The notes beneath the pieces were generated by a model, which saw nothing but the letters and a program-made list of their open reading frames with translations, had not been told where the DNA came from and did not search any database. 45,242 nt of DNA from NCBI GenBank assembly GCA_032718475.1, contig JAUCBJ010001676.1, positions 1-45,242 of the forward strand, given 5' to 3'. How positions within the stretch are numbered: the first letter of the stretch is position 1; every line of letters begins with the position of its first letter. This document shows positions 8,222 to 41,741 of the stretch, piece after piece. The translations under genes and the position numbers were made by a program. Source of the stretch: Nemertoderma westbladi (Eukaryota > Animalia > Xenacoelomorpha).

Positions 8222-8429
8222 GGAGCAGAAAGCCAATCCAGATATAAATTGGCGTCTTCCGGAAGACTTCGCCGTAGTTTACGCTGATATTGAGGGAGAA
8301 TTAGTTATAGGGGGAGTTTATTTAAGATTGTACATCTCGCAACCGGCGTGGGTCCTACGGAAACCTAAAGAATTCCTTGTGGAAATATTAGATAAACTCA
8401 TTCAACTTAGCAGTTACCAAAACCCACAG
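8222..8429 (+). CDS. DNAJC13: DNAJC13 exon (EQKANPDINWRLPEDFAVVY...GGVYLRLYISQPAWVLRKPKEFL...NPQ), phase 2-0
   Basis: Conserved W.LPEDF and GGV.LR...QPAWVLRKP.EFL motifs; ttcccAG acceptor, CAG|GTAAGT donor at 8430. Confidence 0.95.
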
Positions 8430-14400: not shown

Positions 14401-17400
14401 AATATTAGATAAATTCATTCAACTTAGCAGTTACCAAAACCCATAGGTAAGTGGTACCTGGAAATATTAGATAAACTCATTCAACTTAGCAGCTACCAAA
14501 GCCCACAGGGAAGTGGGACCTGGAAATATTAGATAAACTCATTCAACTTAGCAGCTACCAAAACCCATAGGTAAGTGGGACCTGGAAATATTAGATAAAC
14601 TCATTCAACTTAGCAGCTACCAAAGCCCACAGGGAAGTGGGACCTGGAAATATTAGATAAACTCATTCAACTTAGCAGTTACCAAAGCCCACAGGGAAGT
14701 GGGACCTGGAAATATTAGATAAACTCATTCAAATGGGACCTGGAAATATTAGATAAACTCATTCAACTTAGCAGCTACCAAAACCCATAGGTAAGTGGGA
14801 CCTGGAAATATTAGATAAACTCATTCAACTTAGCAGCTACCAAAACCCATAGGTAAGTGGGACCTGGAAATATTAGATAAACTCATTCAACTTAGCAGTT
14901 ACCAAAACCCACAGGGAAGTGGGACCTGGAAATATTAGATAAACTCATTCAACTTAGCAGCTACCAAAACCCATAGGTAAGTGGGACCTGGAAATATTAG
15001 ATAAACTCATTCAACTTAGCAGCTACCAAAACCCATAGGTAAGTGGGACCTGGAAATATTAGATAAACTCATTCAACTTAGCAGTTACCAAAACCCACAG
15101 GTAAGTGGGACCTGGAAATATTAGATAAATTCATTCAACTTAGCAGTTACCAAAACCCATAGGTTAGTGGTACCTGTAAATATTAGATAAACTCATTCAA
15201 CTTAGCAGCTACCAAAGCCCACAGGGAAGTGGGACCTGGAAATATTAGATAAACTCATTCAACTTAGCAGTTACCAAAGCCCACAGGGAAGTGGGACCTG
15301 GAAATATTAGATAAACTCATTCAACTTAGCAGCTACCAAAGCCCACAGGGAAGTGGGACCTGGAAATATTAGATAAACTCATTCAACTTAGCAGTTACCA
15401 AAGCCCACAGGGAAGTGGGACCTGGAAATATTAGATAAACTCATTCAACTTAGCAGTTACCAAAACCCACAGGTAAGTGGGACCTGGAAATATTAGATAA
15501 ACTCATTCAACGCAGTTACCAAAACCCACAGGTAAGTGGGACCTGGAAATATTAGATAAACTCATTCAACTTAGCAGTTACCAAAACTCACAGGGAAGTG
15601 GGACCTGGAAATATTAGATAAACTCATTCAACTTGCAGCTACCAAAACCCACAGGGAAGTGGGACCTGGAAATATTAGATAAACTCATTCAACTTAGCAG
15701 TTACCAAAACCCACAGGTAAGTGGGACCTGGAAATATTAGATAAACTCATTCAACTTAGCATTTACCAAAACCCACAGGTAAGTGGGACCTGGAAATATT
15801 AGATAAACTCATTCAACTTAGCATTTACCAAAACCCACAGGTAAGTGGGACCTGGAAATATTAGATAAACTCATTCAACTTAGCAGCTACCAAAGCCCAC
15901 AGGGAAGTGGGACCTGGAAATATTAGATAAACTCATTCAACTTAGCAGTTACCAAAACCCACAGGTAAGTGGGACCTGGAAATATTAGATAAACTCATTC
16001 AACTTAGCAGCTACCAAAGCCCACAGGGAAGTGGGACCTGGAAATATTAGATAAACTCATTCAACTTAGCAGTTACCAAAACCCACAGGGAAGTGGGACC
16101 TGAGATAAACTCATTCAACTTAGCAGTTACCAAAACCCACAGGGAAGTGGGACCTGGAAATATTAGATAAACTCATTCAACTTAGCAGCTACCAAAACCC
16201 ACAGGGAAGTGGGACCTGAAAATATTAGATAAACTCATTCAACTTAGCAGCTACCAAAACCCATAGGTAAGTGGGACCTGGAAATATTAGATAAACTCAT
16301 TCAACTTAGCAGTTACCAAAACCCACAGGGAAGTGGGACCTGGAAATATTAGATAAACTCATTCAACTTAGCAGTTACCAAAACCCACAGGGAAGTGGGA
16401 CCTGGAAATATTAGATAAACTCATTCAACTTAGCAGCTACCAAAACCCATAGGTAAGTGGGACCTGGAAATATTAGATAAACTCATTCAACTTAGCAGCT
16501 ACCAAAGCCCACAGGGAAGTGGGACCTGGAAATATTAGATAAACTCATTCAACGCAGTTACCAAAACCCACAGGTAAGTGGGACCTGGAAATATTAGATA
16601 AACTCATTCAACTTAGCAGTTACCAAAACCCACAGGGAAGTGGGACCTGGAAATATTAGATAAACTCATTCAACTTAGCAGTTACCAAAACCCACAGGGA
16701 AGTGGGACCTGGAAATATTAGATAAACTCATTCAACTTAGCAGCTACCAAAACCCATAGGTAAGTGGGACCTGGAAATATTAGATAAACTCATTCAACTT
16801 AGCAGCTACCAAAACCCATAGGTAAGTGGTACCTGGAAATATTAGATAAACTCATTCAACTTAGCAGTTACCAAAACCCACAGGGAAGTGGGACCTGGAA
16901 ATATTAGATAAACTCATTCAACTTAGCAGTTACCAAAACCCACAGGGAAGTGGGACCTGGAAATAGTAGATAAATTCATTCAACTTAGCAGCTACCAAAA
17001 CCCATAGGTAAGTGGTACCTGGAAATATTAGATAAACTCATTCAACTTAGCAGTTACCAAAACCCACAGGGAAGTGGGACCTGGAAATATTAGATAAACT
17101 CATTCAACTTAGCAGCTACCAAAACCCACAGGTAAGTGGGACCTGGAAATATTAGATAAACTCATTCAACTTAGCAGTTACCAAAACCCACAGGGAAGTG
17201 GGACCTGGAAATATTAGATAAACTCATTCAACTTAGCAGTTACCAAAACCCACAGGGAAGTGGGACCTGGAAATATTAGATAAACTCATTCAACTTAGCA
17301 GCTACCAAAACCCATAGGTAAGTGGGACCTGGAAATATTAGATAAACTCATTCAACTTAGCAGCTACCAAAACCCACAGGGAAGTGGGACCTGGAAATAT

Positions 17401-17840
17401 TAGATAAACTCATTCAACTTAGCAGTTACCAAAACCCACAGGGAAGTGGGACCTGGAAATATTAGATAAACTCATTCAACTTAGCAGCTACCAAAACCCA
17501 TAGGTAAGTGGGACCTGGAAATATTAGATAAACTCATTCAACTTAGCAGTTACCAAAACCCACAGGGAAGTGGGACCTGGAAATATTAGATAAACTCATT
17601 CAACTTAGCAGTTACCAAAACCCACAGGGAAGTGGGACCTGGAAATATTAGATAAACTCATTCAACTTAGCAGCTACCAAAACCCATAGGTAAGTGGTAC
17701 CTGGAAATATTAGATAAACTCATTCAACTTAGCAGTTACCAAAACCCACAGGGAAGTGGGACCTGGAAATATTAGATAAACTCATTCAACTTAGCAGTTA
17801 CCAAAGCCCACAGGGAAGTGGGACCTAGAAATATTAGATA
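8380..17840 (+). repeat. 62-bp minisatellite, ~150 copies, made of the last ~50 nt of the exon plus the 5' splice site
   Basis: Unit TGGAAATATTAGATAAACTCATTCAACTTAGCAGTTACCAAAACCCACAG|GTAAGTGGGACC; the first copy is the real exon end. Confidence 0.98.
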
Positions 17841-20425: not shown

Positions 20426-20525
20426 GTCAATGAACTTCTGCAGAAAAGTAGTGTTTGGGCGGAATACAGAGACCAGAAACACGATTTGTTTATAAAAGAT
20501 ACCCCAGTAGCTGGTTACTTAACTG
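20426..20525 (+). CDS. DNAJC13: DNAJC13 exon ([34 protein letters not shown]), phase 0-1
   Basis: Conserved [10 protein letters not shown] and AGYLTG motifs; tttAG acceptor, GTGAGT at 20526. Not in the ORF track. Confidence 0.95.
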
Positions 20526-23500
20526 GTGAGTTGATTTAACTATAACCCCAGTAGCGGGTTACTTAACTGGTGAGTTGATTTAACTATTTAACCCCAGTAG
20601 CGGGTTACTTAACTGGTGAGTTGATTTATCTATAACCACAGTAGCGGGTTACTTAACTGGTGAGTTGATTTAACTATAACCCCAGTAGCTGGTTACTTAA
20701 CTGGTGAGTTGATTTAACTATAACCCAGTAGCGGGTTACTTAACTGGTGAGTTGATTTAACTATAACACAGTAGCGGGTTACTTAACTGGTGAGTTGATT
20801 TAACTATAACCCCAGTAGCGGGTTACTTAACTGGTGAGTTGATTTAACTATAACCCCAGTAGCGGGTTACTTAACTGGTGAGTTGATTTAACTATAACCC
20901 CAGTAGCGGGTTACTTAACTGGTGAGTTGATTTAACTATAACCCCAGTAGCGGGTTACTTAACTGGTGAGTTGATTTAACTATAACCCCAGTAGCGGGTT
21001 ACTTAACTGGTGAGTTGATTTAACTATAACCCCAGTAGCGGGTTACTTAACTGGTGAGTTGATTTAACTATAACCCAGTAGCGGGTTACTTAACTGGTGA
21101 GTTGATTTAACTATAACCCCAGTAGCGGGTTACTTAACTGGTGAGTTGATTTAACTATAACTCCAGTAGCGGGTTACTTAACTGGTGAGTTGATTTAACT
21201 ATAACCCAGTAGCGGGTTACTTAACTGGTGAGTTGATTTAACTATAACCCCAGTAGCGGGTTACTTAACTGGTGAGTTGATTTAACTATAACCCCAGTAG
21301 CGGGTTACTTAACTGGTGAGTTGATTTAACTATAACCCAGTAGCGGGTTACTTAACTGGTGAGTTGATTTAACTATAACCCCAGTAGCGGGTTACTTAAC
21401 TGCTGAGTTGATTTAACTATAACACAGTAGCGGGTTACTTAACTGCTGAGTTGATTTAACTATAACCCCAGTAGCGGGTTACTTAACTGGTGAGTTGATT
21501 TAACTATAACCCCAGTAGCGGGTTACTTAACTGGTGAGTTGATTTAACTATAACCCCAGTAGCGGGTTACTTAACTGGTGAGTTGATTTAACTATAACCC
21601 CAGTAGCGGGTTACTTAACTGGTGAGTTGATTTAACTATAACCCAGTAGCGGGTTACTTAACTGGTGAGTTGATTTAACTATAACCCCAGTAGCGGGTTA
21701 CTTAACTGGTGAGTTGATTTAACTATAACCCAGTAGCGGGTTACTTAACTGGTGAGTTGATTTAACTATAACCCCAGTAGCGGGTTACTTAACTGGTGAG
21801 TTGATTTAACTATAACCCCAGTAGCGGGTTACTTAACTGGTGAGTTGATTTAACTATAACCCCAGTAGCGGGTTACTTAACTGGTGAGTTGATTTAACTA
21901 TAACCCCAGTAGCGGGTTACTTAACTGGTGAGTTGATTTAACTATAACCCCAGTAGCGGGTTACTTAACTGGTGAGTTGATTTAACTATAACCCCAGTAG
22001 CGGGTTACTTAACTGGTGAGTTGATTTAACTATAACCCAGTAGCGGGTTACTTAACTGGTGAGTTGATTTAACTATAACCCCAGTAGCGGGTTACTTAAC
22101 TGGTGAGTTGATTTAACTATAACCCCAGTAGCGGGTTACTTAACTGGTGAGTTGATTTAACTATAACCCCAGTAGCGGGTTACTTAACTGGTGAGTTGAT
22201 TTAACTATAACCCCAGTAGCGGGTTACTTAACTGGTGAGTTGATTTAACTATAACCCCAGTAGCGGGTTACTTAACTGGTGAGTTGATTTAACTATAACC
22301 CAGTAGCGGGTTACTTAACTGGTGAGTTGATTTAACTATAACCCCAGTAGCGGGTTACTTAACTGGTGAGTTGATTTAACTATAACCCCAGTAGCGGGTT
22401 ACTTAACTGGTGAGTTGATTTAACTATAACCCCAGTAGCGGGTTACTTAACTGGTGAGTTGATTTAACTATAACCCCAGTAGCGGGTTACTTAACTGGTG
22501 AGTTGATTTAACTATAACCCCAGTAGCGGGTTACTTAACTGGTGAGTTGATTTAACTATAACCCAGTAGCGGGTTACTTAACTGGTGAGTTGATTTAACT
22601 ATAACCCAGTAGCGGGTTACTTAACTGGTGAGTTGATTTAACTATAACCCCAGTAGCGGGTTACTTAACTGGTGAGTTGATTTAACTATAACCCCAGTAG
22701 CGGGTTACTTAACTGGTGAGTTGATTTAACTATAACCCCAGTAGCGGGTTACTTAACTGGTGAGTTGATTTAACTATAACCCCAGTAGCGGGTTACTTAA
22801 CTGGTGAGTTGATTTAACTATAACCCAGTAGCGGGTTACTTAACTGGTGAGTTGATTTAACTATAACCCAGTAGCGGGTTACTTAACTGGTGAGTTGATT
22901 TAACTATAACCCCAGTAGCGGGTTACTTAACTGGTGAGTTGATTTAACTATAACCCCAGTAGCGGGTTACTTAACTGGTGAGTTGATTTAACTATAACCC
23001 CAGTAGCGGGTTACTTAACTGGTGAGTTGATTTAACTATAACCCAGTAGCGGGTTACTTAACTGGTGAGTTGATTTAACTATAACCCAGTAGCGGGTTAC
23101 TTAACTGGTGAGTTGATTTAACTATAACCCCAGTAGCGGGTTACTTAACTGGTGAGTTGATTTAACTATAACCCCAGTAGCGGGTTACTTAACTGGTGAG
23201 TTGATTTAACTATTTAACCCCAGTAGCGGGTTACTTAACTGGTGAGTTGATTTAACTATAACCCCAGTAGCGGGTTACTTAACTGGTGAGTTGATTTAAC
23301 TATAACCCCAGTAGCGGGTTACTTAACTGGTGAGTTGATTTAACTATAACCCCAGTAGCGGGTAACTTAAATGGTGAGTTGATTTAACTATAACCCCAGT
23401 AGCGGGTTACTTAACTGGTGAGTTGATTTAACTATAACCCAGTAGCGGGTTACTTAACTGGTGAGTTGATTTAACTATAACCCAGTAGCGGGTTACTTAA

Positions 23501-23740
23501 CTGGTGAGTTGATTTAACTATAACCCCAGTAGCGGGTTACTTAACTGGTGAGTTGATTTAACTATAACCCCAGTAGTGGGTTACTTAACTGGTGAGTTGA
23601 TTTAACTATAACCCAGTAGCGGGTTACTTAACTGGTGAGTTGATTTAACTATAACACAGTAGCGGGTTTCTTAACTGGTGAGTTGATTTAACTATAACCC
23701 CAGTAGCGGGTTACTTAACTGGTGAGTTGATTTAACTATA
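20501..23740 (+). repeat. 43-44-bp minisatellite, ~74 copies, made of the last 25 nt of the exon plus the 5' splice site
   Basis: Unit ACCCCAGTAGCGGGTTACTTAACTG|GTGAGTTGATTTAACTATA; the first copy is the real exon end. Confidence 0.98.
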
Positions 23741-23960: not shown

Positions 23961-24038
23961 TAGTATTTATTACCTTAGAGAGTTGGGTGTCTGTCTCTTA
24001 CAATCGCGAATTTATTATGTAACTCGAATTTATATGCA

Positions 24039-24044
24039 AATAAA
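24039..24044 (+). promoter_or_regulatory. Candidate polyadenylation signal for DNAJC13 (a second AATAAA lies at 24121-24126)
   Basis: AATAAA about 80 nt after the stop codon; AT-rich context, so chance occurrence is possible. Confidence 0.4.
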
Positions 24045-27000
24045 ATCTCTCTACTTCACTGGCTCTACTTCTCAAACACATATTTTATATATCAACTGAT
24101 TTATTTTTAGTAACTTGATTAATAAATTAACGTCTAAAATCAACGAGTAATTTGACTTGTTTTTTAGTAATCGATTTTTTGTTTTTCATTATAATTTTTT
24201 CATTATTATACAATATTATCAGTGAATGTCCAACTTTTACCAGTTTTGATTCCTAAAAGAATGTTATAATTTAACACAGTCTCCTCATATAAAACATTGT
24301 TGATTTGTGTTGCCTCTCTATTAGCTGGTCTAATACGCATCGACAGCCTCTTCTCCCAGCCTATATGGTCTGGCATTTACCTAATCAAATCAAATCCATT
24401 CATTGTTCGAGTGTTTATGTACAGTATAGGACCTACTGATATTATAAACAACAGCAGGAAATTATTTGAATATGTCGAAGATGGAAATTATTGAGTGGAA
24501 ATGGATCGCCTTTAGGTTTTTCCCACAGAATATCAGGTTTACGAAACTGATAAATTTGGCTGGAACGGGAGGTTTGGCATCTCAGAGTCACATATTTCAT
24601 ATTTTATTCGGTTGTTGAACTAACAGTATCATTAGTTTTTTTTATTATTATTTTATTTGATTAAATAATTAATTTACGCCTATCAAACACACCAATTAAA
24701 TTATTAAGGACTATTTGCCTCTCTTTAGATTAATTATTATTCCTGATATTTGTGGCTTCCTGATTGATAATGTAATCCGTGAATTATTTAAATAATTATG
24801 TGTAACGCCACATCACCACCCTTACCGCACCAAACTATACAGTATTATTAATAAATTAATGTTGTTATTAATAATAATAACTAAACTCTTGCTGTTTCTT
24901 TAGTTTCATTAAGTGCCCTCTAGAAAAAGGATGATTCGCACTTCCGTAATTAGAATAAAGTAAATGTAAGTCTTTTGCTACATTTAGGTAATAAAATTAA
25001 ATGATTAGCTTTAATAATTTGTTAGCAATCTCTTTATTTATTTCATTATATTTCATTCCTGAATCCGTTATAACCTTATAGGGTAGAACATATTATTTAC
25101 CTTAATAGCGATATAATGTAGACTTTACAGCTATTCGCGAATACTTTACAGTTAAACTGAAACTTGTAATTGATGTTCCGCTGTCATGTTTATTTTTCAC
25201 AGATCCTTGTCCTTATAATTTCCCCCTACCGACAGTTCAGGAGAGTGGCGTGGGTATCCTCTATCTGTCTCGTTATAGATAGTCAGCTGTTTAAGGGCAG
25301 GCGTTGTTGATAAATATTTATATAAATACTAGCTACGACCAATTAGCATACTGTACTGCGCTAAAATTTGCAATAACTTCTGACCCGGTGGGTGAAATTT
25401 GTTATTATAAGATGCAAAAACGTTTTCTATTTTGATTTTATATCAGAAATCGTTTCGTATCGTTACAATTTTGGAATAAATCTCGTGCATACTTGTTGCA
25501 AAGTACTTTACAGTGTTATGATTCTCGTTAACTTTTTTTTCACTCACTCACTACGTTTGTTCGTTTGACTCAACCGCTCGGGTCAATCAGCGTACTGTAA
25601 AGTCTTAGTTTATACGCAATGTATTTATATTGATTACTTTGGCTTCGTGTTATAATTCTAATGAATGTTTACCTGGTGCGATTAACTACGCTTCCTCGGG
25701 CTGCCAGATAATAATTGTTTGGTCGGAGCTACGCGTAGCTAAATATTATTATTAAGATTTGTGCTATTTTTCATAACTAATGCAAGTGTTATTAGATTAA
25801 TTACAATAATAATAATAATTTCAGTTGTATTGTATTATTTGTTTGTGTATGAAGTTGAATTATTTCGTTAATTTCTAAAATTTAATTTGGTTAATATATT
25901 TTGCAGTTTATATTTAGAAATTAGTGACTATTTTAATTAATTGGGTCTATAATTTTTTCTTAACTAATTGAACTTGGCTGCCGCATGACAATGTATAGTT
26001 CTCTCAGAATAGACCATGCCTCACGCAGCTATAGTGTAAGTGATTGGGGGCTGAGTGGTTATCTGAATCAATGGGTCTTTATTTCACTGATAGTCACTAT
26101 ATGACTAAGGTAATGGGTAGTATTTGTTACTAAAGAGTTATTTGAAAAACAGCCTCTTACATTAACGCCATTTTTCCATCAGGCCCCGTATGTTTATGAG
26201 GTATGAGGCTTGATTATAACAAACACAGTTTGCGAAACTCATTCAATTTATTTGTTCTTTAAAAGTTATGTAACTATTAGTCTCTCTAAGGGATCCTTGG
26301 GCAATCCTTCTCAACCTCTTCGGTAGAAAGTGATGAAAAACACTTAATGGGAACACTTAATAAAGGCCTAGGCCTAGGTTATAACCCCCTTTGCTCAAAT
26401 TTTGAAATTGTTGTTTCTTTATTTCGTCCAGAGCAGAATTTAATGAGGATTACAAATCTGAAAACCGCTTAGTGAGACCTGCTTTAGTTCTCGAGTTATA
26501 ACTGTTTTTACGTATGTCGGCCGACAAACAGACTAGATTCCCCCAAACATTAAAACTGACATCGGAAATGGAATCAGTGACCCCGAAAACCCCCGTAATA
26601 AAAGTTTTAGCTCGTTGGTGTGCATCCTTCGTACCAGAAATAATTAACCAACCAGAACACGGACAGTCACTTTTGGCGGGACGGTTTAAACTTTGAAGGG
26701 CATTTTCTCGGAATGACATTTTTCCTTTTTCTAATTTTCTACTCCTCCGTCATTTTTCAACCAATTTTCTTAGTTTTTGGCTCATTCGAACGAGCTTTGG
26801 AAGCTCTTTAAAAGTTATCGTAGGAATTTTGATAAATTTTACCATTTTGTGTAATTAGCCAATTTTAATTAAAAATATGGTAATTAATTAATTAATTAAT
26901 TCAAATAAAATAGGCTAATTAAAGATTATATTAGATAACTTTTGTAGAATCGATGACGCTAAGTCTAAAAAAGTTGGTTTCATGAAATTTGGACCAAGAT

Positions 27001-27144
27001 TGAGGGACTAGTAGCAATTTTAGTGAAATCTTTAATTCCACCGCCAGCCGCTAGGGGGAGGCTATTGTATTGTATTGTATTGTATTACCACAAAACTTAA
27101 TAACAGTTGAAGTACCGGCAAATACCGGACCAATAAAAATTGAA

Positions 27145-27470
27145 CCTTTTTATGATATAGTTAAAAGCATTTTCCGAGACAAAGTCCAGGATTTGCCGAC
27201 CAGGTCGAACAATGATATCTGGAGTTCTTCCTAATCTTATTAGCCCAGCAAATCCGACATTGCTTTTGCGGATTTATATACAAATACAATAAGTAGCCCT
27301 TTGTATCACATAGAAAGAATATAATGATACCGAAACGGGCGCGTTATATTCGAATAAATTGTTTGAAATGAAGCACCCCTTGATCAATAGGAGAGACTCA
27401 TCGAGAGAGAGTTCTTGCTCGGGAATGTAGATTCCACAGATTTTATGGAGTTCTTCAATGAAGTCAGTCA
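27145..27470 (-). pseudogene. piggyBac transposase relic, internally deleted (first catalytic-Asp region fused to the C-terminal Cys-rich domain)
   Basis: Minus strand reads YIPEQELSLDESLLLIKG, frameshift, LHFKQFIRI*RARFGIIIFFLCDTKGY, then directly PQKQCRICWANKIRKNSRYHCSTWSANPGLCLGKCF*LYHK. Confidence 0.85.
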
Positions 27471-27775
27471 GTCTCGACATTGTCGTCGAGTACTACCCGA
27501 CGGCCCGACTCGAGCTATTCGGCTCGTCCGTAAACGGCTTCGGATTCTGGCACTCGGACCTCGACATATGCATGACGATGTCGGACATTCCGGACGCCTC
27601 GGAGGTCCACCAAGAAGCCGTTATCGCCAACTGCCAACCTCGGGAAACAAATGCGGAATCTCCGGGAGGAGTTTGCTAACGTCTCCCCGATAACCTCCGC
27701 TAAGGTTCCCATCGTTATGTTCCTCCATCTCCCCTCCGACTCGAGGGCGATATCAGTCTCTAGTCTCTACAACAT
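27470..27775 (+). pseudogene. Fragment of a terminal uridylyltransferase (TUT4/TUT7-like) nucleotidyltransferase domain, frameshifted
   Basis: YPTARLELFGSSVNGFGFWHSDLDICMT (GS...DxD motif), then in another frame NVSPITSAKVPIVMFLHL...SLYN; more GC-rich than its flanks. Confidence 0.8.
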
Positions 27776-27798
27776 TCAGATATCGGACGAAGTTTCAC

Positions 27799-28467
27799 TA
27801 GGTCATAGAGCACTTCCACGCACTTTCATATGACCTAACAGTTAGGTCATAGAGCACTTCCACGCACTTTCACATGACCTAACAGTTAGGTCATAGAGCA
27901 CTTCCACGCACTTTCATATAACCTAACAGTTAGGTCATAGAGCACTTCCACACACTTTCATAAGACCTAACAGTTAGGTCATAGAGCACTTCCACGCACT
28001 TTCATATGACCTAACAGTTAGGTCATAGAGCACTTCCACGCACTTTCATATTACCTAACAGTTAGGTCATAGAGCACTTCCACGCACTTTCATATTACCT
28101 AACAGTTAGGTCATAGAGCACTTCCACGCACTTTCATATGACCTAACAGTTAGGTCATAGAGCACTTCCACGCACTTTCATATGACCTAACAGTTACGTC
28201 ATAGAGCACTTCCACGCACTTTCATATGACCTAACAGTTAGGTCATAGAGCACTTCCACGCACTTTCATATGACCTAACAGTTAGGTCATAGAGCACTTC
28301 CACGCACTTTCATATGACCTAACAGTTAGGTCATAGAGCACTTCCACGCACTTTCATATGACCTAACAGTTAGGTCATAGAGCACTTCCACGCACTTTCA
28401 TATGACCTAACAGTTAGGTCATAGAGCACTTCCACGCACTTTCATATGACCTAACAGTTAGGTCATA
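27799..28467. repeat. 44-bp tandem array, ~15 copies, each containing the palindrome TATGACCTAAC-A-GTTAGGTCATA
   Basis: Unit GGTCATAGAGCACTTCCACGCACTTTCATATGACCTAACAGTTA. Confidence 0.96.
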
Positions 28468-28483
28468 GGCGTCAAGGGGTTAA
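28468..28483 (-). mobile_element. piggyBac terminus with TTAA target site (TTAA|CCCCTTGACGCC on the minus strand)
   Basis: ...GGCGTCAAGGGG|TTAA at 28480-28483, on the 5' side of the minus-strand transposase relic. The matching other end was not identified. Confidence 0.7.
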
Positions 28484-28544
28484 GCAAGTCAAAAGTCGTA
28501 TATGTTTAAAGATGTTATATTATTCTGTGGTATTTTAGGTATCA

Positions 28545-28787
28545 AAAGCAAAGCAAAAAGCAAACAGTCAGCCGAAGCCGGAGGCGACCCGAAGGCTCCT
28601 CTTTCGATAGCTGCTACCCGAGAGGGTAGGGGTGGTCGCTACTCCTATCCCAAGATTTGCTCCCAGTTATTTAACTGGTACTCATTTTATCGACCCCAGT
28701 GGATGAAAGGCTGAGTGGACCCTGGCGGGCTGAATCTACAACCAATAGATTGCAGGCCCGGCGCTCAACCAACTGAGCTACCCCGCC
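28545..28787 (-). mobile_element. tRNA-derived SINE
   Basis: Minus strand begins GGCGGGGTAGCTCAGTTGGTTGAGCG (A box), followed by GGTCCACTCAGCCTTTCATCC...GGTCGATAAAATGAGTACCAG, a central segment I recognise from widespread metazoan SINEs, and ends in a (TTTGC)-like tail. Confidence 0.8.
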
Positions 28788-28873
28788 TACCCTCTTGAAA
28801 ATTAGTTACATTTCGTATTTAGCCGCCTTTCCCGTGTTATCTAACTGCAGTTAGGTGCAGCACATTTAAATTA

Positions 28874-29000
28874 GGAGTCCGGACAATTGCGACCCGGTCA
28901 ATTGCGATCCGGTCAATTTTTTCTAAAATCATGGTTCGCAATTATCCAGGTCGCAATTATCCAGGTCGCAATTGTCCAGGTCGCAATTGTCCTAACATCA
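28874..29000. mobile_element. 127-bp MITE with repeated subterminal motifs and 8-bp TSD TTAAATTA
   Basis: Left GGACAATTGCGACC-type motifs are inverted relative to right GGTCGCAATTGTCC-type motifs; TTAAATTA at 28866-28873 and 29001-29008. Confidence 0.7.
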
Positions 29001-29297
29001 TTAAATTAATAATTGTACTAATCCATGTATTATAGATAACCTACAACCTATTTCATTTAACTTGCCAAATTATTATCATATTATTGTATAATGATTATTA
29101 TTTCCATGGATTCATTTTATGTGCCAAACGCCAAAGATTTGTCGGTTTATAACGGGTCGGTTCGAAACAAACAATGGGAATTTATCTATCAAACACATTT
29201 GGTTCAAAAGGGCAATATATTTTAATTGTCATTTATTGATAGTAAATAGGCGAAAATATTGTTTATAAATCACTTTCCTGAAGTTTCACCAACCAAC

Positions 29298-30809
29298 ATG
29301 CTCCTTCAGATAGCAATAGGAGTTGGTACGTTTACACTGGTGGTCTACGTGGCGCGAACAATCCAATGGCGATTGAGATACAAGATGCCACCCGCGCCAC
29401 ACAGCTGGCCGTTACTAGGCAATGCATTTTCGGGACCGAAAAATAAAAAAATGTACCAAACACTAATGGAATGGAGTAAGGAATTCGGCCCGGTTATTAC
29501 ATTGTCTGTGGGTCCGTTTGTTAACGTTGTTACGCTAAACGATATCGAGTCAATTAGAGAAGCGTTCGTACGTAAAGGCAACGAATTCGCTGGGCGACCC
29601 AAGTTTTATTCCGCCGAAATAACAAGCGATAACTACAGCGACATCGCCGCCGCAGATTTCTCGCCACAGTGGAAGTTCCTAAGGAAAACCGCCGCGGGCG
29701 CTTTCAAACATTTTGCGTCGCGGAATCAGGTTGAGGAATTGTCAAGAAAATCCTTCAGGTCAATTACAAGTAGCATCGACCAAAAGGTGGTGGATAAAGA
29801 CGTCCAAAGACATGGGTTCGACCCTGAAGAGACTCTTGCATTACTTGTATTCAATACGGTTGCGGGGCTCTGTTTCAACAAGATCTATGATCCGCAAGAC
29901 AAGGTATTTCAACACATTCACCAACTCTTTGTAGACTTGATTAAAGTTGGCGGAAACGGACTTGTTGCCGATTATATACCGATATTTCGTTACTTTCCGA
30001 CGTCCACTGTGAGGATAATTAAAAGAGCCATGGAGGATTTCTTGGGGTTCATAGAGAAAGAGATCACTGAGCACAAAGAGGAGTTCGATGCTGATCATAT
30101 GAATGATCTCACAGACTACCTCATCTACGAACAGAAACAGTCTCTAGACCACCAAGGGCAACACGATTTCTCAGATTTGGTTCTCAAACATATCCTTTCG
30201 GATACATTTGGCGCCGGTATAGATACAACAAATCGATTGCTTTACTGGGGGCTAGCTTTAATGGCTACCAATCCAGATGTACAGGAACGTTGTGCTACTG
30301 AGTTAAATGAAGAAGTTGGACCCGAGGGGTTACCGGAACTTGGGCAGATGCCTCGATTACCGTACACGGTTGCCACAGTCCACGAGCTTCTACGCTACGC
30401 CACAGTGGCGCCGCTATCCGTTCCACATTCCACCACGCAGGACGTGGAACTACTGGGATATAAACTCCCAAAGGGCACCATGGTGCTCCCCAATCTGTAC
30501 GCGGTCCACTACGACGCCACGAGATGGACTAACCCGGAAGAGTTTAACCCGAATCGGTTTATCCTCAACGGAGAATTCGTTATGAGTTACTCCGAAGGTT
30601 TTCTGCCATTTTCTGCAGGTAGACGAGTCTGTCTAGGTGAAGCTGTTGCTAAACCCGAACTGTTTATCCTTTTCAGCTGTCTGGTACACACGTACGAGTT
30701 TTCTCCTGCTCCAGATAGCCCCCCACCCAATGTGTCTCCCTCGGAGGAAACTTCCGCATTCGAGTTTATGCCGCATCAATACAAAGTTGCGGTCCGGAGA
30801 CGATACTAA
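29298..30809 (+). CDS. Cytochrome P450, clan 2 (CYP17/CYP1/CYP2-like), intronless, 503 aa
   Basis: First ATG at 29298 (ccaacATG); N-terminal membrane anchor, PPAP..WPLLGN hinge, WxxxR, I-helix FGAGIDTT, ELLR, FNPNRF and heme motif FSAGRRVCLG; TAA at 30807-30809. Confidence 0.95.
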   Translation: MLLQIAIGVGTFTLVVYVARTIQWRLRYKMPPAPHSWPLLGNAFSGPKNKKMYQTLMEWSKEFGPVITLSVGPFVNVVTLNDIESIREAFVRKGNEFAGRPKFYSAEITSDNYSDIAAADFSPQWKFLRKTAAGAFKHFASRNQVEELSRKSFRSITSSIDQKVVDKDVQRHGFDPEETLALLVFNTVAGLCFNKIYDPQDKVFQHIHQLFVDLIKVGGNGLVADYIPIFRYFPTSTVRIIKRAMEDFLGFIEKEITEHKEEFDADHMNDLTDYLIYEQKQSLDHQGQHDFSDLVLKHILSDTFGAGIDTTNRLLYWGLALMATNPDVQERCATELNEEVGPEGLPELGQMPRLPYTVATVHELLRYATVAPLSVPHSTTQDVELLGYKLPKGTMVLPNLYAVHYDATRWTNPEEFNPNRFILNGEFVMSYSEGFLPFSAGRRVCLGEAVAKPELFILFSCLVHTYEFSPAPDSPPPNVSPSEETSAFEFMPHQYKVAVRRRY

Positions 30810-31824
30810 TGTAGATGTTCGTAATTATTTGGTGCCAACAATCAATTTAGTTGTGGAACTATATGCTACATAATTGCACGCCATTCCGATATCTGCTTGC
30901 GCATAGCACCCCACACACACAACGATCATAGGGAATACTCATGCAACAAATATATCAAACTAATCAAACAAACTTAGACTGCTTAAGTATTCATTACATA
31001 GTTAAAACTTTAGTTCTGGATAAAACAACACCCGATAACCAATTAATTCATAAAGAAGTACATTATTAATTTCTTAACTCATAATTTCAATATGAGCAAT
31101 TAATAATATTAATAATTTCTGAAACTTTCGAATGTTGTTACTAAGAAACCATGCGTCCTGGTATATTATCTTGTTATTTGGCCTAATTAATATCAAACCC
31201 TCGAAATAATGTTGTGTCTAGCCATTCCATTTCCATACTATGTCATGTGATGTCATGTTGTCTGTACCATAACGTGCCATGATGTAACATGCCAAGTCCT
31301 ACAAAGTTATTATCATCCTGTGACAGTAATGCCACAACAAATCGCCATGTGCCATGCCATGGATGTCATACCGTGTCAGAGCTGTGCTATCATATTAATT
31401 CATATGCCAATGCCATGGTGTGTCTGTTACGGACACACGTAATATGCCGACGTAAGATGGCGTATATTGTGCCATTTATAGCAATCCAGGCAACCACAAA
31501 GGCTGTGATTTCAGTGATTAAAGTTTAGTACCGTCCGACACCTGTAACGTCCGACACTATTATTATTATGTATTTAATGTTTAAATTGCAGTATATAGTG
31601 TAAAGGCATATTCCAGAACTATATTGTTCGTCTTCTTCTAACATTTATTTTATTCAACAAGAAAGCAATTGGACAACAAGCCAATATAGTGGCTTATGAG
31701 TGCCCGTTTGCCACTGTATTGTTTTTATATGCATGTAGGCCTACTACTAAATACTAGGCCCTAAAACATCAAATATCTTTGTCCATATGATTTTCAATAC
31801 TAAAATAAATAAATATATAAAAAT

Positions 31825-32369
31825 TGTGACGGGATCCAGATGGGATCCCGGTTTATCCGGTTTTGTCAGTTCACGCGTCCCTGCCGTGTGTGAAGAGTAA
31901 AAGAGTTTCGGTTGTTCGACGTGTATAATGTTTGGGTATATGGATATAGATACGGTATAATGGTGGATAAAGTTATTGCATATGGAAGGCGGGAGACGGT
32001 AATTGAAATCCCGGTACTTCCCTAACTAAACTATTGTAAGCTACAGTAACACCAGTAACTAGCACTGAGATAACTGAACTGATATGATTACAGGTTACTG
32101 GTTATATTGCACGGTGGCCTTATTGCTACTCAATCGATGCCTTTCCCCCCTCCTGATTGGTTGGAACCCTTGTTGGCGCCCTTTGGAGTGTTCCCGTTCA
32201 CTCCACCTGTTCTCTCTGGGTTAGGGGTTTGGCCCCTGACCCTCATTGTGTGTTTCCTTCCCATTCTTATTGGGATGGCACGAGTTGGTTAATTACCCAA
32301 TCTCGTGGCTCCCAATATTGTTTATCGGCTTAACTTTATGGGGTGTTAGCGGGATTGAATAAGGTAACA
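31825..32369 (-). repeat. 3' LTR, 545 bp, TG...CA
   Basis: TGTGAC...GTAACA; adjacent CTCCCCCCAT is the PPT (ATGGGGGGAG on minus); nearly identical to 44958-45242. Confidence 0.92.
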
Positions 32370-35000: not shown

Positions 35001-35180
35001 CTTCTGCCTACTAACTGCATACCTACCATGTACTATTATTTTATTTTATTTTATTTTTTTTTTATTTTGTTTGTGGGAAGGGCGTCTCGCCCTCAATCCC
35101 ACCCCCCTCAGTCCAAAACTTGGACGACTAAACTTTTCTTTAACTCTACTAAGGTGCCCCTTCTAACAGACAGCATTTGC

Positions 35181-35642
35181 CTACAGCTCTCCTGTAGGTT
35201 TTTCTGTCCTTTCTATCTTTCCACCTATCCGCACTTCCACCGATCGGACTCTTCCGTCCTCGTCGGAGTAGGTGCCTACAACTCTCGCCAACCGCCATTG
35301 GTTGTTGATGATAGTATCATCCGTAACGATTACGAGATCTCCCTCTCTTATCTCCCTATTCGGCTTCCTCCACTTGCTTCTTTTATGGAGTGTGGGTAGG
35401 TATTCCTCGACCCACCTCCTCCAATACTCTGCGCTAATTGCTTTGGCGACTTTCCAACTTTGGCGGGAGTGTATGTCGTCTGGATCTACACCCCGCATGT
35501 CGATGGTCGCTGGCCTTTCCATCAGGAAATGGCTAGGCGTCAGCACGTCTAGTGACTCAGGGTCATCATTCTCCGGGTATAGCGGTCTGCTATTAATGAT
35601 CCCCTCGCACTTCGCAAGCACCGTCCGTAAGACATCTTCTGT
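35181..35642 (-). CDS. Integrase C-terminal part of the BEL/Pao polyprotein, separated by an insertion
   Basis: IINSRPL, LTPSHFL, WRRWVEEYL, WRLARV and DGRVRSVEVR motifs; joins in frame to ...HMVTEDV when the insert is removed. Confidence 0.9.
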   Translation of the reverse strand, partial: TEDVLRTVLAKCEGIINSRPLYPENDDPESLDVLTPSHFLMERPATIDMRGVDPDDIHSRQSWKVAKAISAEYWRRWVEEYLPTLHKRSKWRKPNREIREGDLVIVTDDTIINNQWRLARVVGTYSDEDGRVRSVEVRIGGKIERTEKPTGEL

Positions 35643-36834
35643 TCGCGCTTTCAGATCTTTGGCAGTTTAACCCGCCAAATTAGGATGTCTTCTAGATAAT
35701 AAATCACTTTTAGCCTCTGACAAGTATTTGATTCACTACACTAGTCGAAACCAATCGGTGCGCGATCATTCACCCGCTGGATATACCCGGGAGATTGGGT
35801 TCGACGGCTTAATCGTATTGCTATGTAAGCCTAATGTATTATTCGACTGACAGTATTATATAATCTCTGACAATATTATTCACCTTCGGGGAATATTAAC
35901 AGTTCCTTTAGGACGTGGCGCTCTATCTATAAAAACAGAGTTATGACTTAAACTACTCACAACGATATGGCTTAGTTACAATTCACATATATGGCGCATT
36001 CTTTAGGAAATGCTTCGTTATCAGTCTCACTCACACACAATGCTGCACAATACTGCACACTGATCTGCCGATCTTCACTGATTTTAGTCACATATAAAAG
36101 GAACACGGACCGAATCATGTAGGGTCTATCAAATAACATTAGATTCACTTCAAACCACTTTAACATAAGTCACAATCGTTATATGTAACCTTTCTCTCTT
36201 ACCTTCGGTATATCAAGAATATTGGGTTTCGGGGTTATTTATCGTTATTCCAAATATAATTCATCAACCATATTATGAAGGACCGACAGTAAATAGCAGT
36301 ATAACAATATAAAGTATGCACAGTGTTACACAGTATGCAGTGTCAGTAAGATATTAAATCAGATAACGGATATATGTCCTTATAATTAAGCCTACTAGTG
36401 TTAGGCTAAAACAGAAAAGCACAAATATTCCAGAAGCCGTTCTTTCCTGGCTCAGGACAGAATGTAAACACTGCCCATAACGCATTGAGTGATTTCTAGG
36501 AAATTTCTGTACAAGAGCCATAAAAATGCTCTGATTGGCTGACTGAACTGAGAGACGCCGTAGAACAAAGAAAATCAACACGTATGAATATCAGCTGTTA
36601 ACCGTCGTCATAGTAACTACTGTTCAAGAGTAGCTATCACCTTTTGCGTCACGGAATTGCCATAGAATCATCAACTATGCCTTTCACAGTACACATACGG
36701 AGGAAATAGGTCTTAGATCCTCTAAAAAACACCGATACAGCAATAATACGGTCTCTTACACCTATTAAATCAACTACAGAGTATTTTAATGTAAAAGATA
36801 ATAAAAATAACGAGGCAATTCAGCAAAGGCTTTT
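35643..36834. mobile_element. 1192-bp AT-rich insertion of unknown class flanked by 11-bp TSD ACATCTTCTGT
   Basis: Direct repeat at 35632-35642 and 36835-36845; removing the insert and one copy restores MVTEDVLRTVLAKCE. Confidence 0.85.
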
Positions 36835-39800
36835 ACATCTTCTGTGACCATGTGGGTGTTCATTAGCTTCGTCATTAGACGCTTTGAACTGCCCACCAGT
36901 CTCTCGACGCATCCTAGTGTATGTGGTGCATACGGCGTCCTCCTCTCCCACTTTACTTGTCGTCTTCTCATGGCTGCCCTGACTTCTTCTCCCTCCAAGA
37001 TGTCCAATGCCTCTGCCATCTCATTCTCTGCGCCCACAAAGTTGGTGCCGTTGTCGCTGTATATCACTGCGATCGTCCCACCTTTGCGGTCCCTAAACCT
37101 TTCTAAGGCATTAATGAATGCTGATGCGGTTGCATCTTGGGCGAGTTCTATCCCTACCGCCCGTGTGTTGTTGCATACGAAGATAATGCCGTAGCGTTTC
37201 TCCGTGTGTCGCATCACTTTGATCTTTATCGGCCCGAACATGTCCACATCGCAATGCGTAAATGGCGGGTCGTGCTGTCTTACCCTACTCGCCGGTAGTG
37301 GCGCCATCTCCTGTACGGCTCGCTCCTTCTTCGCTCGTCGGCAGGTCTGGCACTGCCCCACTACCGCTTTTACCTTCTTCCTCAATTGTTTGACCCAATA
37401 GGTCCTCCTTATCTCTGTGAGGGTTCGGTTGGTGCCCCCATGCAATATGGATTTGTGGGAGTCCCATATAATCTGATGGACTATCGGCGATCCTGTAGGA
37501 ATGATGATGGGTTTCGGTGGTACGACTATGCTGTTGTTGTATCCCACCCTAGAATTCATTACTAGAATCCCGTCGTCATTGAGTTGTGGTGACAGCGTAA
37601 TCAGCTCGCTGTCCCGTCGGAGGTGCTGTTGGTTACCGACGCGTTCCATCTCGTCGCCGTAGTTCTTCCGTTGTTCATAGCGGATCACTGCCTTGGCCGC
37701 TCCTTCCAGATCTATGGTTGTCCTGGTCTTCTTGTCCTTACCAACTCCCGCAAGGAAATTCCCGAAGGCTCTCCAGTACGCCACTAGTTTCTTGGTCTTA
37801 TACCAACTAGTACTGTAACTGAGGAGTTTATCTGTCAGATTATCGCACAGTTCTCGTCCTGGTTGCACGTCCCTAATCTCCCTCACCATCTGGGAGTATA
37901 TCTCTTCTCCCTCTGAATCTCCCTCTTCTCCTTCTGATACCACTTCTGAGCCCGGGTCCACCCTTCTCATCGGCGGCCAGGCCTCCTTATCGCTCAGAAA
38001 TTGTGGCCCATGCTGCCACAATACTTCCTTCTTCAGGAAAGTGTGGCGTTCTACGCCCCTCGACAGCAAGTCCGCTGGGTTCTCGTCTGTTGGGCAGTAG
38101 TGCCACCTTTCCAGTTCTGTGGTCGCCCTTATTTCGTCCACTCTATTTGCGACGAATATCGGGTATCTCGTCCTTTCGTTATGTAGCCAACCAAGCACTA
38201 CCATGGAGTCTGTCCAGTAGTGTGTCTCCACTATGTTGGGAATAGTATCCACTAGGTAGGCTGTGGCTCTAACTCCTAGTCTCGCAGCTGTCAATTCTAA
38301 CTTGGGAACTGATGCTGAATCTGGCGGCGTCGACTTTGCTTTACTAAAGGCTAGTCTGGGCTTATGAGCCCCCTCTCGTTGTACTAAATAGAGTGCCGCT
38401 CCGTACGCCTCCAACGACGCATCGGAGAACATGTGTAGGTCCAGACTCGTCATGTTCCCATCTGGGAAATACACTCGAGGCATGTTGTATGTTCCCATCT
38501 TCTCCAAGTCTCTTGTCCACTTGCTCCACTGTTTCTTGATTTCCGCTTGTACCTCTACGTCCCACTCATCCTTCAATTTGTATACTCTCTTGAGTATCTG
38601 TTTCCCCGTGACTAATAATGGGGATGCTAGGCCTAGGGGATCGTATATCCTTGCTATATACGATACATAGCCCCTCTTCGTGTGGATGTCTGCGCCCTCC
38701 TGGCTCAGCTGATACTTCAGTTCGTCTGTCTCTCTATCCCACACGATTCCCAATGCCTTCTGCTGGGATTCCGTTCTCTTAATCGCCATGTCCTGCCCTT
38801 TGGCTGTTGTGGGATTATCCATGGTCGATTCTGGTTTCCTGTCCTCTATGGCTTTGATAAATTCTTCCGAACTGGATTGGAATTTGGTCAGGTTAAAGCC
38901 GGATCCCTTTAGGATGTCGCGAACCTCGCGCCCTGTATCCAGTATCTCCTTAACCGTATTTCCAGACTCCATTCCGTCGTCTACGTAGAAGCCGCGTCGA
39001 ATCATATCGACGGCCCTACTGCTGTATCTATCTTCCTTCCCCTTTACTGTGTCTCTCACTGCCATAGTCGTCGTAAATGAAGACGACTTGGCCCCCATGT
39101 TCTGTACTACCATCTTATATGCCGGTATTATCGACGGTTCTTCCTCGCCGTTATACCATAAGAAGCGCTGACTGTCGCTATCTTCTTCCGTTACACGGAC
39201 TTGGTTGAACATGCCTTCTATGTCACACGTGAAGGCGTGTTTCCCATTTCTAAATCTAAGTAACACCTCTATGCCCGAATTGTATATGTTTGGGCCTTCT
39301 AACAGGTAGTCGTTTAAGCACTTTCCGTCGGTCTTTGCCGATGCGTCGACTACCATCCTTAGTTTACCTTTCTTTGGATCTAAAGCCACGTGCAGTGGCA
39401 GGTAATATGTCCTATCCGTGTTCGGCTCGTCGACCGGTAACTCCACGGCCCATCCTTTCTCGACGTACTTCTTAATTGTTCTGTGAATGTACTCATTCTT
39501 CTCGGGCCTCCGTTTTAGTGTTTGTTTCAGTTTGCGGAGTCTCGTGAGTACCATCCCCCTATTGTCGGGCAGCGGTATCTTCGGTAGTTTCCATACCATT
39601 CCTATAGTATACCGTCCCTCATCGCATGTCATTGATTCCTCCACGCTTTGTAAAGCCTGCTTGTCTTCTACTGAGGTCCCGACTCCGGTTTCTTTCAGTC
39701 CCTCGAAATCCTGTCTGAGCAGTCTTTTAAGCTGCTCCTCTGCTCCCTCGTCACCCATTTCCTGCATTGTTCCCGCGAACATGCATCCTGATGTCTCCGA

Positions 39801-41741
39801 CATCCTAAATGGTATCTTGCTCTTAATTGGACCACTCAGCGTCCACCCGAATGGTGTTAATATGGCCACCGGGTCACTCTGCTTGTCTTCGCCGAAGACC
39901 GTTTGCATTCTTTCGTGGGCCGTTGGGCAGTCCATGCCTACTATGATGGACACCTTCCTAACGTCCACGTCTGGGATTGAGAAGTCAATGTCGTCCAGGA
40001 ATTTATACTGCTCGACCTCGATGTTGGTTGGTCGCCTGGCATTAATATTAATTGACTCTATCACCTGGATGGGGTCGATGGTTGCCCCATAGTCGCATCC
40101 TGGTGCCATTGCTGCAATTGCGCACCGTCCTGTTCTCATCTCTAGGATATCATCTTTGCTAGAGATGGTTGTTACCGCCATCCTGCTTGGCCTCGTTCTC
40201 AATCCTATCTCTTCGGCCACCCATTCCTCGACTAATGTGAAGGCAGCTCCACTATCAACCAGCATTAATGTTGTTATTGATCGATTGCCTTCCCCAATCA
40301 CTCGCACGGGTACTACTCCAAGTAGCACCGTTCCTCTCTTCTTCGCCCCTACTGTGCTCGTCGCCATCGTTTGGCCTCTCCTTTGACCAAACTTGACCAG
40401 CTTCTCCTTGCACTCCCTTGCTCTATGTCCACTCATTACACATCGTGAGCAGATTTTGTTGCTGAACGCATAATCTATCTGATCTTGCCTAGGTAGCGCC
40501 TGCCAGTACCTGCAGTTCATGGTTTGATGAAGCGCATTTGCGTGTAGCTGGCATTTGCTCTTTGGGTCGTAGCCCTCTTTATACAGCGCATTGCGTATCA
40601 CAGTTGCGTTTGTACCAAAGTCCCTACTATTCTTATTGTTTGGATTCGGCCTACTGGACGTACTGGGGTTATGTTTATTCGTGTTGTTATTGTTCCCCTG
40701 TCCGTTCCATGGTGTGGTCTCATCTTCGGCTAGCTGTGGACTTGCAGTCCCCTGTGTCGCTGCATATGGCAATGATTGCCTGAGTCTCGGTAATGCGTTT
40801 GATGTATTGTGCTCTGGTTTCGGTCTATGGTAGTCTATCTTCGGTCCCTTTCCCAGGCTATCTTCACTATAGACTGGGTCAGTTATTAGCTCAGCCTCGT
40901 AGTTTAAGAAGTTTGACATTTCTTCTAAATCAGGTTCCACACCCTTCTTATCCCGAGTGGAGAAGGCGATTTTTCTCCACTTGTTGCGCAGCCAGTTTGG
41001 TAGTGCCTGCGCTATCGTGGTGATGTTGTTGGACGCATTGAGCTCGTATGGCGCGTCTAGCGTCTTCAGGACGATTAGCGCCTTTTCGACTTTGTTAGCG
41101 AACGTCTTAATGCTAACGGGATTATCCTGTAGGCCACCCGATGTTATGCCTCTCAGCGTCTGCCTGATGATCTTGGCCGGGTGCCCGTATTCCCTATCCA
41201 GTGCCCGCCATGCTGTCGTGAAGCCGCCCTCTATTCCTTGATATTGCCTCACGATATCGTATGCTGGGCCTCCCGTGTACACTTGCAGATACTTTAAGCA
41301 CTCCGCCTGCGTCAAGTTTTTTGTTAGTATTTCGTTACTATACATGCGCCGAAACTGTAGATATTCTTCCGGCCTGCTCCCATCGAATTTGAATGGTTCC
41401 ACGGGTGGTAGCTCGATCCTCGTTTTCAACGCATCGATCAACGTGGCCATCCCCATCGCCTGCGCTTCCAATGGATTCGACGGGTGCTGTATAGTTTCCC
41501 CTGTCTGGTGCGGTTCGTCTGTCCTATTTCTTGATCTTCTCTGACTTGGGTATGTCATCGGGGGTAGCGGCCCCCTCCATATGTCCGTATCACACGACCT
41601 ATTCTCATCCAAGGGTCTCGTTGTTCTTGCTCCTATCGGGGTATATTGTTGATATTGTGATGGGGGAATGTCACCCTGTCCCCCCCCCCCACCGGTATGT
41701 TTGGTACTGGGGTTGATGTTAATATGTTGGGGCCCATACAC
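36835..41741 (-). CDS. BEL/Pao gag-pol core (gag, zinc knuckles, protease, RT, RNase H, integrase)
   Basis: FDGS..EY..F gag, CSRCVMSGHRAREC, LVDSGA, YLPLH..LRMVVDAS, FYVDD, YDPLG, LHMFSDAS, PKLELTAA, NPADLLSRG, HGG/CQTC, DMFGP and SDNGTNF motifs. Confidence 0.96.

Follow-up and report, generated by a model that had tools for sequence, protein, structure and literature searches.

The stretch of DNA analysed here, which we call the window, comprises 45,242 nucleotides of the Nemertoderma westbladi contig JAUCBJ010001676.1. Read on the minus strand, its positions 27145-28483 carry a TTAA end, a 44-bp array, a piece of a TUT4/7 gene that itself lies on the plus strand, and the relic of a piggyBac transposase, in this order (Table 1). 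An earlier sequence-only reading had proposed these four pieces and their order, and we found all of them in the window where it had placed them; it did not mention a 27-nt stub between TUT piece and array or the lack of a partner terminus. For comparison we used contigs of four DNA runs (X1-X4), which come from three samples and three studies. X1 is identical to the window over several long pieces and is not independent, because it may be the window's source.

Table 1. Parts of the chimeric element in the window and the basis on which each was assigned.
Positions	Strand	Feature	Basis
27090..27140	-	Last part of the transposase frame plus a short 3' remnant; element truncated, no 3' terminal repeat	Contigs; partner-end search
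27131..27274	-	Decayed zinc finger of the cysteine-rich piggyBac C-terminus, with one stop and one lost Cys	Pfam zf-Tnp_2; piggyBat 537-574
27275..27379	-	DDE-domain piece fused to the zinc finger via internal deletion	Pfam DDE_Tnp_1_7 141-174; piggyBat 254-284, weak
27370..27472	-	Upstream DDE piece with SLDES motif	Translation; no database match alone
27473..27773	+	301 nt of captured TUT4/7 coding sequence from the N-terminal lobe of the catalytic domain	Pfam; PDB; contig breakpoints
27774..27800	-	27-nt stub, non-TUT element DNA between cargo and array	Present in X1, X3 and X4 contigs
27799..28468	.	Subterminal array, 15.2 x 44 bp	23-nt palindrome per unit; left start in mid-palindrome
28468..28479	-	Candidate 5' terminal repeat CCCCTTGACGCC	Sequence; no partner end found
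28480..28483	.	TTAA target site	Sequence

The C-terminal cysteine-rich domain of the transposase relic is detected by Pfam zf-Tnp_2 with E 1.3e-6 (29.2 bits, cut-off 24), and the adjoining DDE piece aligns with DDE_Tnp_1_7 at E 0.086 and 12.6 bits, which is below the cut-off of 22.4 and statistically weak. The sole PDB match of the relic is the piggyBat transposase (E 0.17). Because this match ends at residue 284 and resumes at 537, about 250 codons are missing between the relic's pieces. The fused DDE/zinc-finger form is spanned without any joint by two further contigs (X3 record 9 and X4 record 17). The first 35 codons of the relic (27370-27474) gave no match when searched alone; their SLDES motif is presumably that of the first catalytic Asp. 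The X1, X3 and X4 contigs show one extra base at 27370, with which the upstream DDE piece is in frame with the next piece. An intact transposase was not found in protein searches, and 25499-27091 gave no transposase or other Pfam match of note.

An unrelated common repeat interrupts the element on its 3' side, near 27090-27100. Related contigs, whose alignment starts at 27100, extend for another 1233 nt (X1 record 1) or 1245 nt (X4 record 17) in DNA that lies off the window. A TTAA is present at 27097-27100 with no terminal repeat after it, and the element's left end, in window coordinates, is cut off. The repeat that cuts the relic's 3' side (26340-27086) is non-coding and very common (thousands-fold summed contig depth), ends in a TATTG microsatellite and has no Pfam match of note. 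It is flanked by ACTTAATAA (26355-26363 and 27095-27103), a possible target-site duplication. Further to the left, a short, extremely common repeat (25475-25569) stands amid low-copy flank.

At the opposite end, TTAACCCCTT in the CCCCTTGACGCC end occurs nowhere else on either strand of the whole window, and no partner terminus was found in the window with up to six mismatches in 23 nt. Paired short terminal inverted repeats are missing from the window copy; as the related contigs run 1.2 kb further 3', this lack concerns the one copy and not the family. Directly inside the terminus lie subterminal palindromic and direct repeats, which are common, though not obligatory, in piggyBac-like elements. 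The array copies are 98% alike, and the palindrome in each unit is near-perfect. Array and TTAA end sit 5' of the transposase strand, an orientation that fits. The array palindrome had no match in metagenome contigs. The description of piggyBat from Myotis lucifugus gives a left end of three motif-plus-palindrome units, 44 bp apart (PMC11707139). The window element shares with piggyBat the TTAA site, a short terminal repeat, the 44-bp left-end units and the C-terminal cysteine-rich domain, and its end likewise resembles piggyBac-like elements described with palindromic direct repeats (PMC5381638). Unlike piggyBat as presented there, it carries 15 near-identical units instead of three, with a different unit sequence, and its transposase is deleted twice, dead and only weakly matched at the protein level. 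Most likely the array arose by expansion of transposase-binding units at the left end. The common 44-bp period hints at a fixed transposase-binding spacing that may be expandable into arrays.

The TUT cargo runs antisense to the transposase strand and is spread over three frames by three frameshifts, with no intron. It matches Pfam MTPAP-like_central with E 1.3e-9. The best of its 29 PDB matches are TUT4 (E 5.2e-11) and TUT7 (1.7e-10), with GLD2 at 1.1e-4; all TUT4/7 matches fall between 5e-11 and 5e-7, and all others (GLD2, TUT1, mitochondrial PAP, Cid1) are at 4.5e-5 or weaker. A second frame of the cargo also matches TUT7 (E 0.0035). Its GC content of 0.56 exceeds that of the transposase pieces (0.37-0.39). 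Like metazoan TUT4/TUT7 (TENT3), the cargo holds the FGSS, DxD and third-Asp motifs of the second, catalytic nucleotidyltransferase domain, and for most of its long database relatives the match falls into two stretches, as is the case for TUT4/7. Unlike TUT4/TUT7, it amounts to about 95 codons of a 1000-2000-residue protein, is frameshifted and lacks the PAP-associated lobe; it is not a gene. Beyond the animal, two weak loci matched the TUT piece in metagenome contigs, one of them (L001) apparently GC-rich DNA of bacteria and unrelated, and viral contigs gave no match to it.

The three contigs bridging the right junction all carry the 1-nt loss at 27739, and X2 record 16, X3 record 13 and X4 record 19 run through the tandem 7-mer near 27626-27639 without a gap; a second 7-mer duplication (27755-27768) occurs in the window and X1 only. 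Shared among the samples are thus the DDE/zinc-finger deletion, the loss at 27739 and the 7-mer near 27630, and from the shared cargo lesions we can conclude that the cargo was broken before the copies diverged. We reject a coding role for the cargo, because two frameshifts are common to the copies. The distance from DxD to AKVP is 142 nt, which equals 45 codons if one allows for the tandem 7-mer; homologues have 41-47. We compared the homologues for introns in a set of 152 proteins, minus P0152 and 13 proteins of intermediate length. Among the short database ORFs with the motif, 59 of 64 stop before AKVP. A Val, whose codon would supply a GT donor, stands 14-16 residues past the DxD in 38 of 59 short ORFs, compared to 7 of 54 long proteins. 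Judged from these sequences, the Val pattern in the short ORFs appears to be an intron donor common in the relatives.

The left junction of the cargo (27472/3) is bridged with at least 31 letters on each side by X2 record 15, X3 record 10 and X1 record 6, which means by two studies besides X1; for X4 record 18 and X3 record 12 the crossing amounts to no more than 22 and 25 letters, and we did not count them. Bridges over the right junction (27773/4) come from X1 record 8, X3 record 16 and X4 record 23. The chimera of piggyBac transposase relic and TUT4/7 piece is real. It is not an assembly artefact, because both junctions are bridged in other samples, and an assembly chimera at the transposase/TUT junction in particular is ruled out by the bridges from two other studies. 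The TUT piece is not an exon of a neighbouring gene either, a possibility that the sequence-only reading had listed among the signs of an independent insertion: the neighbour is an uninterrupted cytochrome P450 ORF. This P450 frame (29250-30809, plus strand) has 519 codons, reaches a Pfam E of 1.6e-101 and starts about 770 nt from the TTAA end. Between the two we noticed, by eye, a SINE-like repeat at 28550-28790, with similar letters left of 27100 in one X3 contig. A small MITE-like inverted-repeat element follows at 28879-28992, with 15-nt units and 38-nt arms that are 84% complementary; its weak Rfam microRNA matches are likely due to chance, and Rfam over 24000-32000 gave three weak chance matches.

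Contigs with a longer TUT sequence depart from the window at 27473 in X3 (one of three runs) and at 27759 in X1, X3 and X4 (three of three). The loose letters keep the TUT frame, with profile scores of 8.1 bits upstream and 3.4 bits downstream, compared to -29.6 and -24.7 for the window's own letters. The profile was built on 54 of 71 long homologues. Against 20000 random window translations, a lenient null since it includes stops, none reached the upstream score and about 4 (fraction 0.0002) the downstream one. Because the TUT frame continues in the loose letters, the cargo bounds are 27473-27773. The longer copy is 94-98% alike over an overlap of 72-124 nt: its differences from the window amount to 7 letters and 1 gap over 27636-27759 in X1, 6 letters and 1 gap over 27660-27759 in X4, and 1 letter and 1 gap over 27688-27759 in X3. 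In X3 it is a 2432-nt contig (record 15) which overlaps 27688-27759 and runs on for 2.36 kb, with no intron at the breakpoint. By its likeness and frame, this longer intron-free TUT copy is likely the donor, and the donor may be a retrocopy or an intron-poor gene. Exact microhomology is absent from the left junction; at the right junction 4 of the 6 next letters are alike. Protein searches did not return the donor protein: the best long matches were 55% and 71% over part of the query, and another lay at E 7. The top representative match, P0003, was rejected as a repeat-protein artefact. X3 record 15 may represent a TUT4/7 gene or retrocopy free of introns, which would be unusual for the working gene, and together with the uninterrupted P450 frame the intron-free TUT donor raises the question whether the lineage is intron-poor or rich in retrocopies.

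Past the cargo, the contigs that cover 27769-27800 continue in all three runs into DNA absent from the window, for 347 nt in X1, 233 in X3 and 38 in X4, and cargo and array are linked only by the window itself. Since the contigs leave at 27800 for other DNA, the array joint in the window probably stems from a later deletion; it shows a 2-nt TA overlap with the array begun in mid-palindrome. The other copies continue past the stub, and therefore the cargo likely sits inside the transposase gene. In one minus-strand frame each, the stub reads SETSSDI and the loose letters DNDGSSFRG, both rich in Asp and Ser. The stub is possibly a piece of an acidic transposase N-terminus, a guess from composition. 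Such a composition would fit the disordered N-terminus with kinase sites that is described for piggyBac-type transposases. Coming from the left, 27801-27816 is uncovered by the X1, X3 and X4 contigs, and the bin depths are 7/23 of the contigs leaving at 27800. However, absence in the contigs does not prove the window joint false, as the filter drops records. A rough depth sum for X1 record 8 (57x shared, 19x beyond) gives 26.7 versus 27.2 seen and would fit a pruned branch, with the proviso that contig depth does not measure copy number. X3 leaves 25950-26329 uncovered and shows hardly any of the array unit, and 27094-27099 is uncovered in both X3 and X4; these gaps were not used as evidence.

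The number of copies was judged from the sequence types. X1 shows four types over 27107-27232 and X3 three types beside the left junction. These are more types than one diploid locus allows, which suggests several loci if each run represents one animal; pooled animals in a run would give many types as well. Compared to the window, the transposase part differs in X4 by 21 of 301 letters, with 10/450 and 12/about 880 in the flank (left flank 1.4-2.2%), and in X3 by 11 of 301 letters, with 0/452 and 0/288 in the flank. The TUT piece varies by 2-3% among the samples (X2 4/156 and 6/216, X4 3/144, X3 3/157), which is within the flank range of 1.3-3.1% (X2, X4). To the left of 27100 there are three different sequences, and one more is found to the left of 27107. 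On these sequence comparisons the copies of the chimera probably form a small family at several loci.

The reading that we hold to be moderately probable is a gap-filling capture from the intron-free TUT copy, followed by passive spread to a few loci. A break inside a piggyBac copy would have been repaired by a template switch to the TUT copy and back, so that one gap-filling event would replace part of the first third of the transposase with 301 nt of antisense TUT. The fusion of DDE piece and zinc finger may then have come from a further internal deletion that predates the divergence of the copies. Each copy would be a locus of its own, mobilised in trans by some intact transposase, with the TUT piece as passive cargo. 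The window copy would finally have lost at least 347 nt between stub and array, across the TA overlap, and also its 3' end; with these losses it would be immobile now. Gap filling and template switching with later transposition are two Pack-TIR routes proposed by Tan et al. (PMC8277862).

The capture could alternatively have happened at a single locus, where gap filling took place in an element that was dead by then; the types would be old alleles or local duplications. Single-copy capture is the usual case for animal Pack-TIRs (PMC8277862), the cargo divergence among samples lies in the allelic range and the contigs gave no target-site duplication. We nevertheless regard a single locus as unlikely in view of the four types in X1 and three in X3, of transposase pieces that differ by 4-7% next to flanks that differ by 0-3%, and of the different sequences to the left of 27100 and 27107. 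Still less probable, in our estimate, is that a retrotransposon put a processed TUT4/7 mRNA into the transposase gene and that deletions trimmed the insert to 301 nt, in which case the rightward-continuing long TUT contigs could be a less-trimmed insert. The cargo is indeed without an intron where many relatives appear to have one, just as the sequence-only reading had wanted checked, but the longer DNA copy is uninterrupted at both breakpoints too, and for this reason the lack of introns in the cargo does not show capture from RNA. Of the hallmarks of a retrocopy (poly(A), target-site duplication, mRNA 3' end) none is present, and both cargo ends lie inside coding sequence; the fragment's own target-site duplication, which would have meant an independent insertion, was looked for and none was seen. 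Furthermore, the intron-free DNA copy is in frame on both sides (on the left side in X3 only), and at least one additional deletion would be needed.

The array and TTAA end may belong to something else, being half of another, common non-autonomous piggyBac that was joined at 27800 by deletion or assembly collapse. All contigs listed that reach 27800 continue into other DNA, contigs with the array unit are many in X1, X2 and X4, so the unit is common, and the array begins in mid-palindrome. We consider a foreign terminus improbable all the same, since side and strand of the end are right for the relic's transposase and its 44-bp period is also found at the left end of piggyBat, the only PDB match of the relic. 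On this basis of side, strand and period we infer that terminus and array belong to the same element as the cargo. A foreign terminus would in any case be compatible with the capture itself. The sequence-only reading had also speculated on a defence gene as target, and one could imagine that the cargo was kept because antisense RNA of the element lowers TUT4/7 and thereby weakens RNA defence. The cargo does run antisense to the transposase strand, with 94-98% likeness to the long copy, TUT4/7 restrict LINE-1 and RNA viruses (PMC7988573), and such cross-talk has been reported in maize (10.1101/777037). Yet the orientation is a matter of chance, one of two, the family looks small and decayed, and the window copy is without the DNA where the promoter of the element would likely lie. 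The targets cited for TUT4/7 are LINE-1 and RNA viruses (PMC7988573), not DNA transposons, and hence the carrier has no clear gain. Retention for such a benefit therefore appears to us extremely improbable, and silencing of a defence gene by the element is unlikely. Hardly more credible is the combined scenario of a mobile piggyBac family that spread the antisense TUT4/7 piece, with small RNAs from silenced copies hitting TUT4/7 and dampening RNA defence, and with a left end grown to 15 transposase-binding units. Most likely the cargo does nothing, or at most feeds TUT-matching small RNAs if a copy is silenced; it looks like decaying junk.

The sequence-only reading is supported in part. Capture gains from the junctions bridged elsewhere, the donor-like longer TUT copy, the lack of an own target-site duplication or poly(A) and the coding-internal ends, but the adjacency of cargo and array that was part of the proposal is absent from the other copies seen. 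To the left of the cargo lies the transposase relic, and to its right the 27-nt stub plus unplaced DNA in the other copies or the piggyBac-type end in the window copy. A parental copy exists outside the element, in that the longer in-frame TUT contigs leave it at both breakpoints. Two intact termini around the cargo, however, are not found in the window copy, in which the 3' end is gone, and full Pack-TIR membership therefore goes beyond the evidence. The window copy works like a Pack-TIR and most likely descends from one. It is well supported that an animal DNA transposon has here captured a gene fragment once more. Among twelve loose contig ends, none leaves at 27472 into uninterrupted transposase, so that a cargo-free relative is absent from this set, an absence only.

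The assembly name strPur2, which appears in the following comparison, we take to be that of sea urchin. Tan et al. (2021, PMC8277862) list 370 animal Pack-TIRs, of which 8 are PiggyBac (2 in medaka, 5 in assembly strPur2, 1 in zebrafish); the five rows are labelled Squirrel yet carry the assembly name strPur2. Pack-type capture by piggyBac, which the sequence-only reading had called less well known, thus already has catalogued cases in animals. Multicopy animal Pack-TIRs number four there (1.4%), in frog and alligator, the named one being a hAT element, most others are single-copy, and the sections consulted describe no multicopy piggyBac Pack-TIR (PMC8277862). The element in the window resembles the animal Pack-TIRs in that host DNA lies in a cut-and-paste element with internal breakpoints, in a cargo of about 300 nt and in the gap filling or template switching proposed (PMC8277862). 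It differs from the piggyBac Pack-TIRs listed there, whose carriers are short non-autonomous families with a consensus of 188-1010 bp (PMC8277862): here the cargo sits inside transposase-coding remnants and is derived from the coding sequence of an RNA-tailing enzyme, and only one terminus is present. In the literature outside subscription papers and preprint supplements we found no report of TUT4/7 capture by a transposon. For a superfamily with so few listed captures, a donor-like copy and both breakpoints are resolved here to the single base. Should several TTAA-bounded loci be confirmed, piggyBac would join the short list of multicopy animal Pack-TIRs. Because the copies differ among samples, they also offer a natural test of silencing spill-over onto a host RNA-defence gene.

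The rest of the window is rich in repeats. A complex 48/75/123-bp satellite array occupies 2608-7948, a 62-bp satellite of about 150 copies follows at 8380-17840, and 20501-23740 holds a second 44-bp array with 74 copies, which is unrelated to the piggyBac array. On the minus strand at 36786-41741 we found an open 1651-codon frame of a BEL/Pao LTR retrotransposon with protease, RT, peptidase A17 and integrase matches, and a further Pao-like piece is apparent by eye near 35180-35670.
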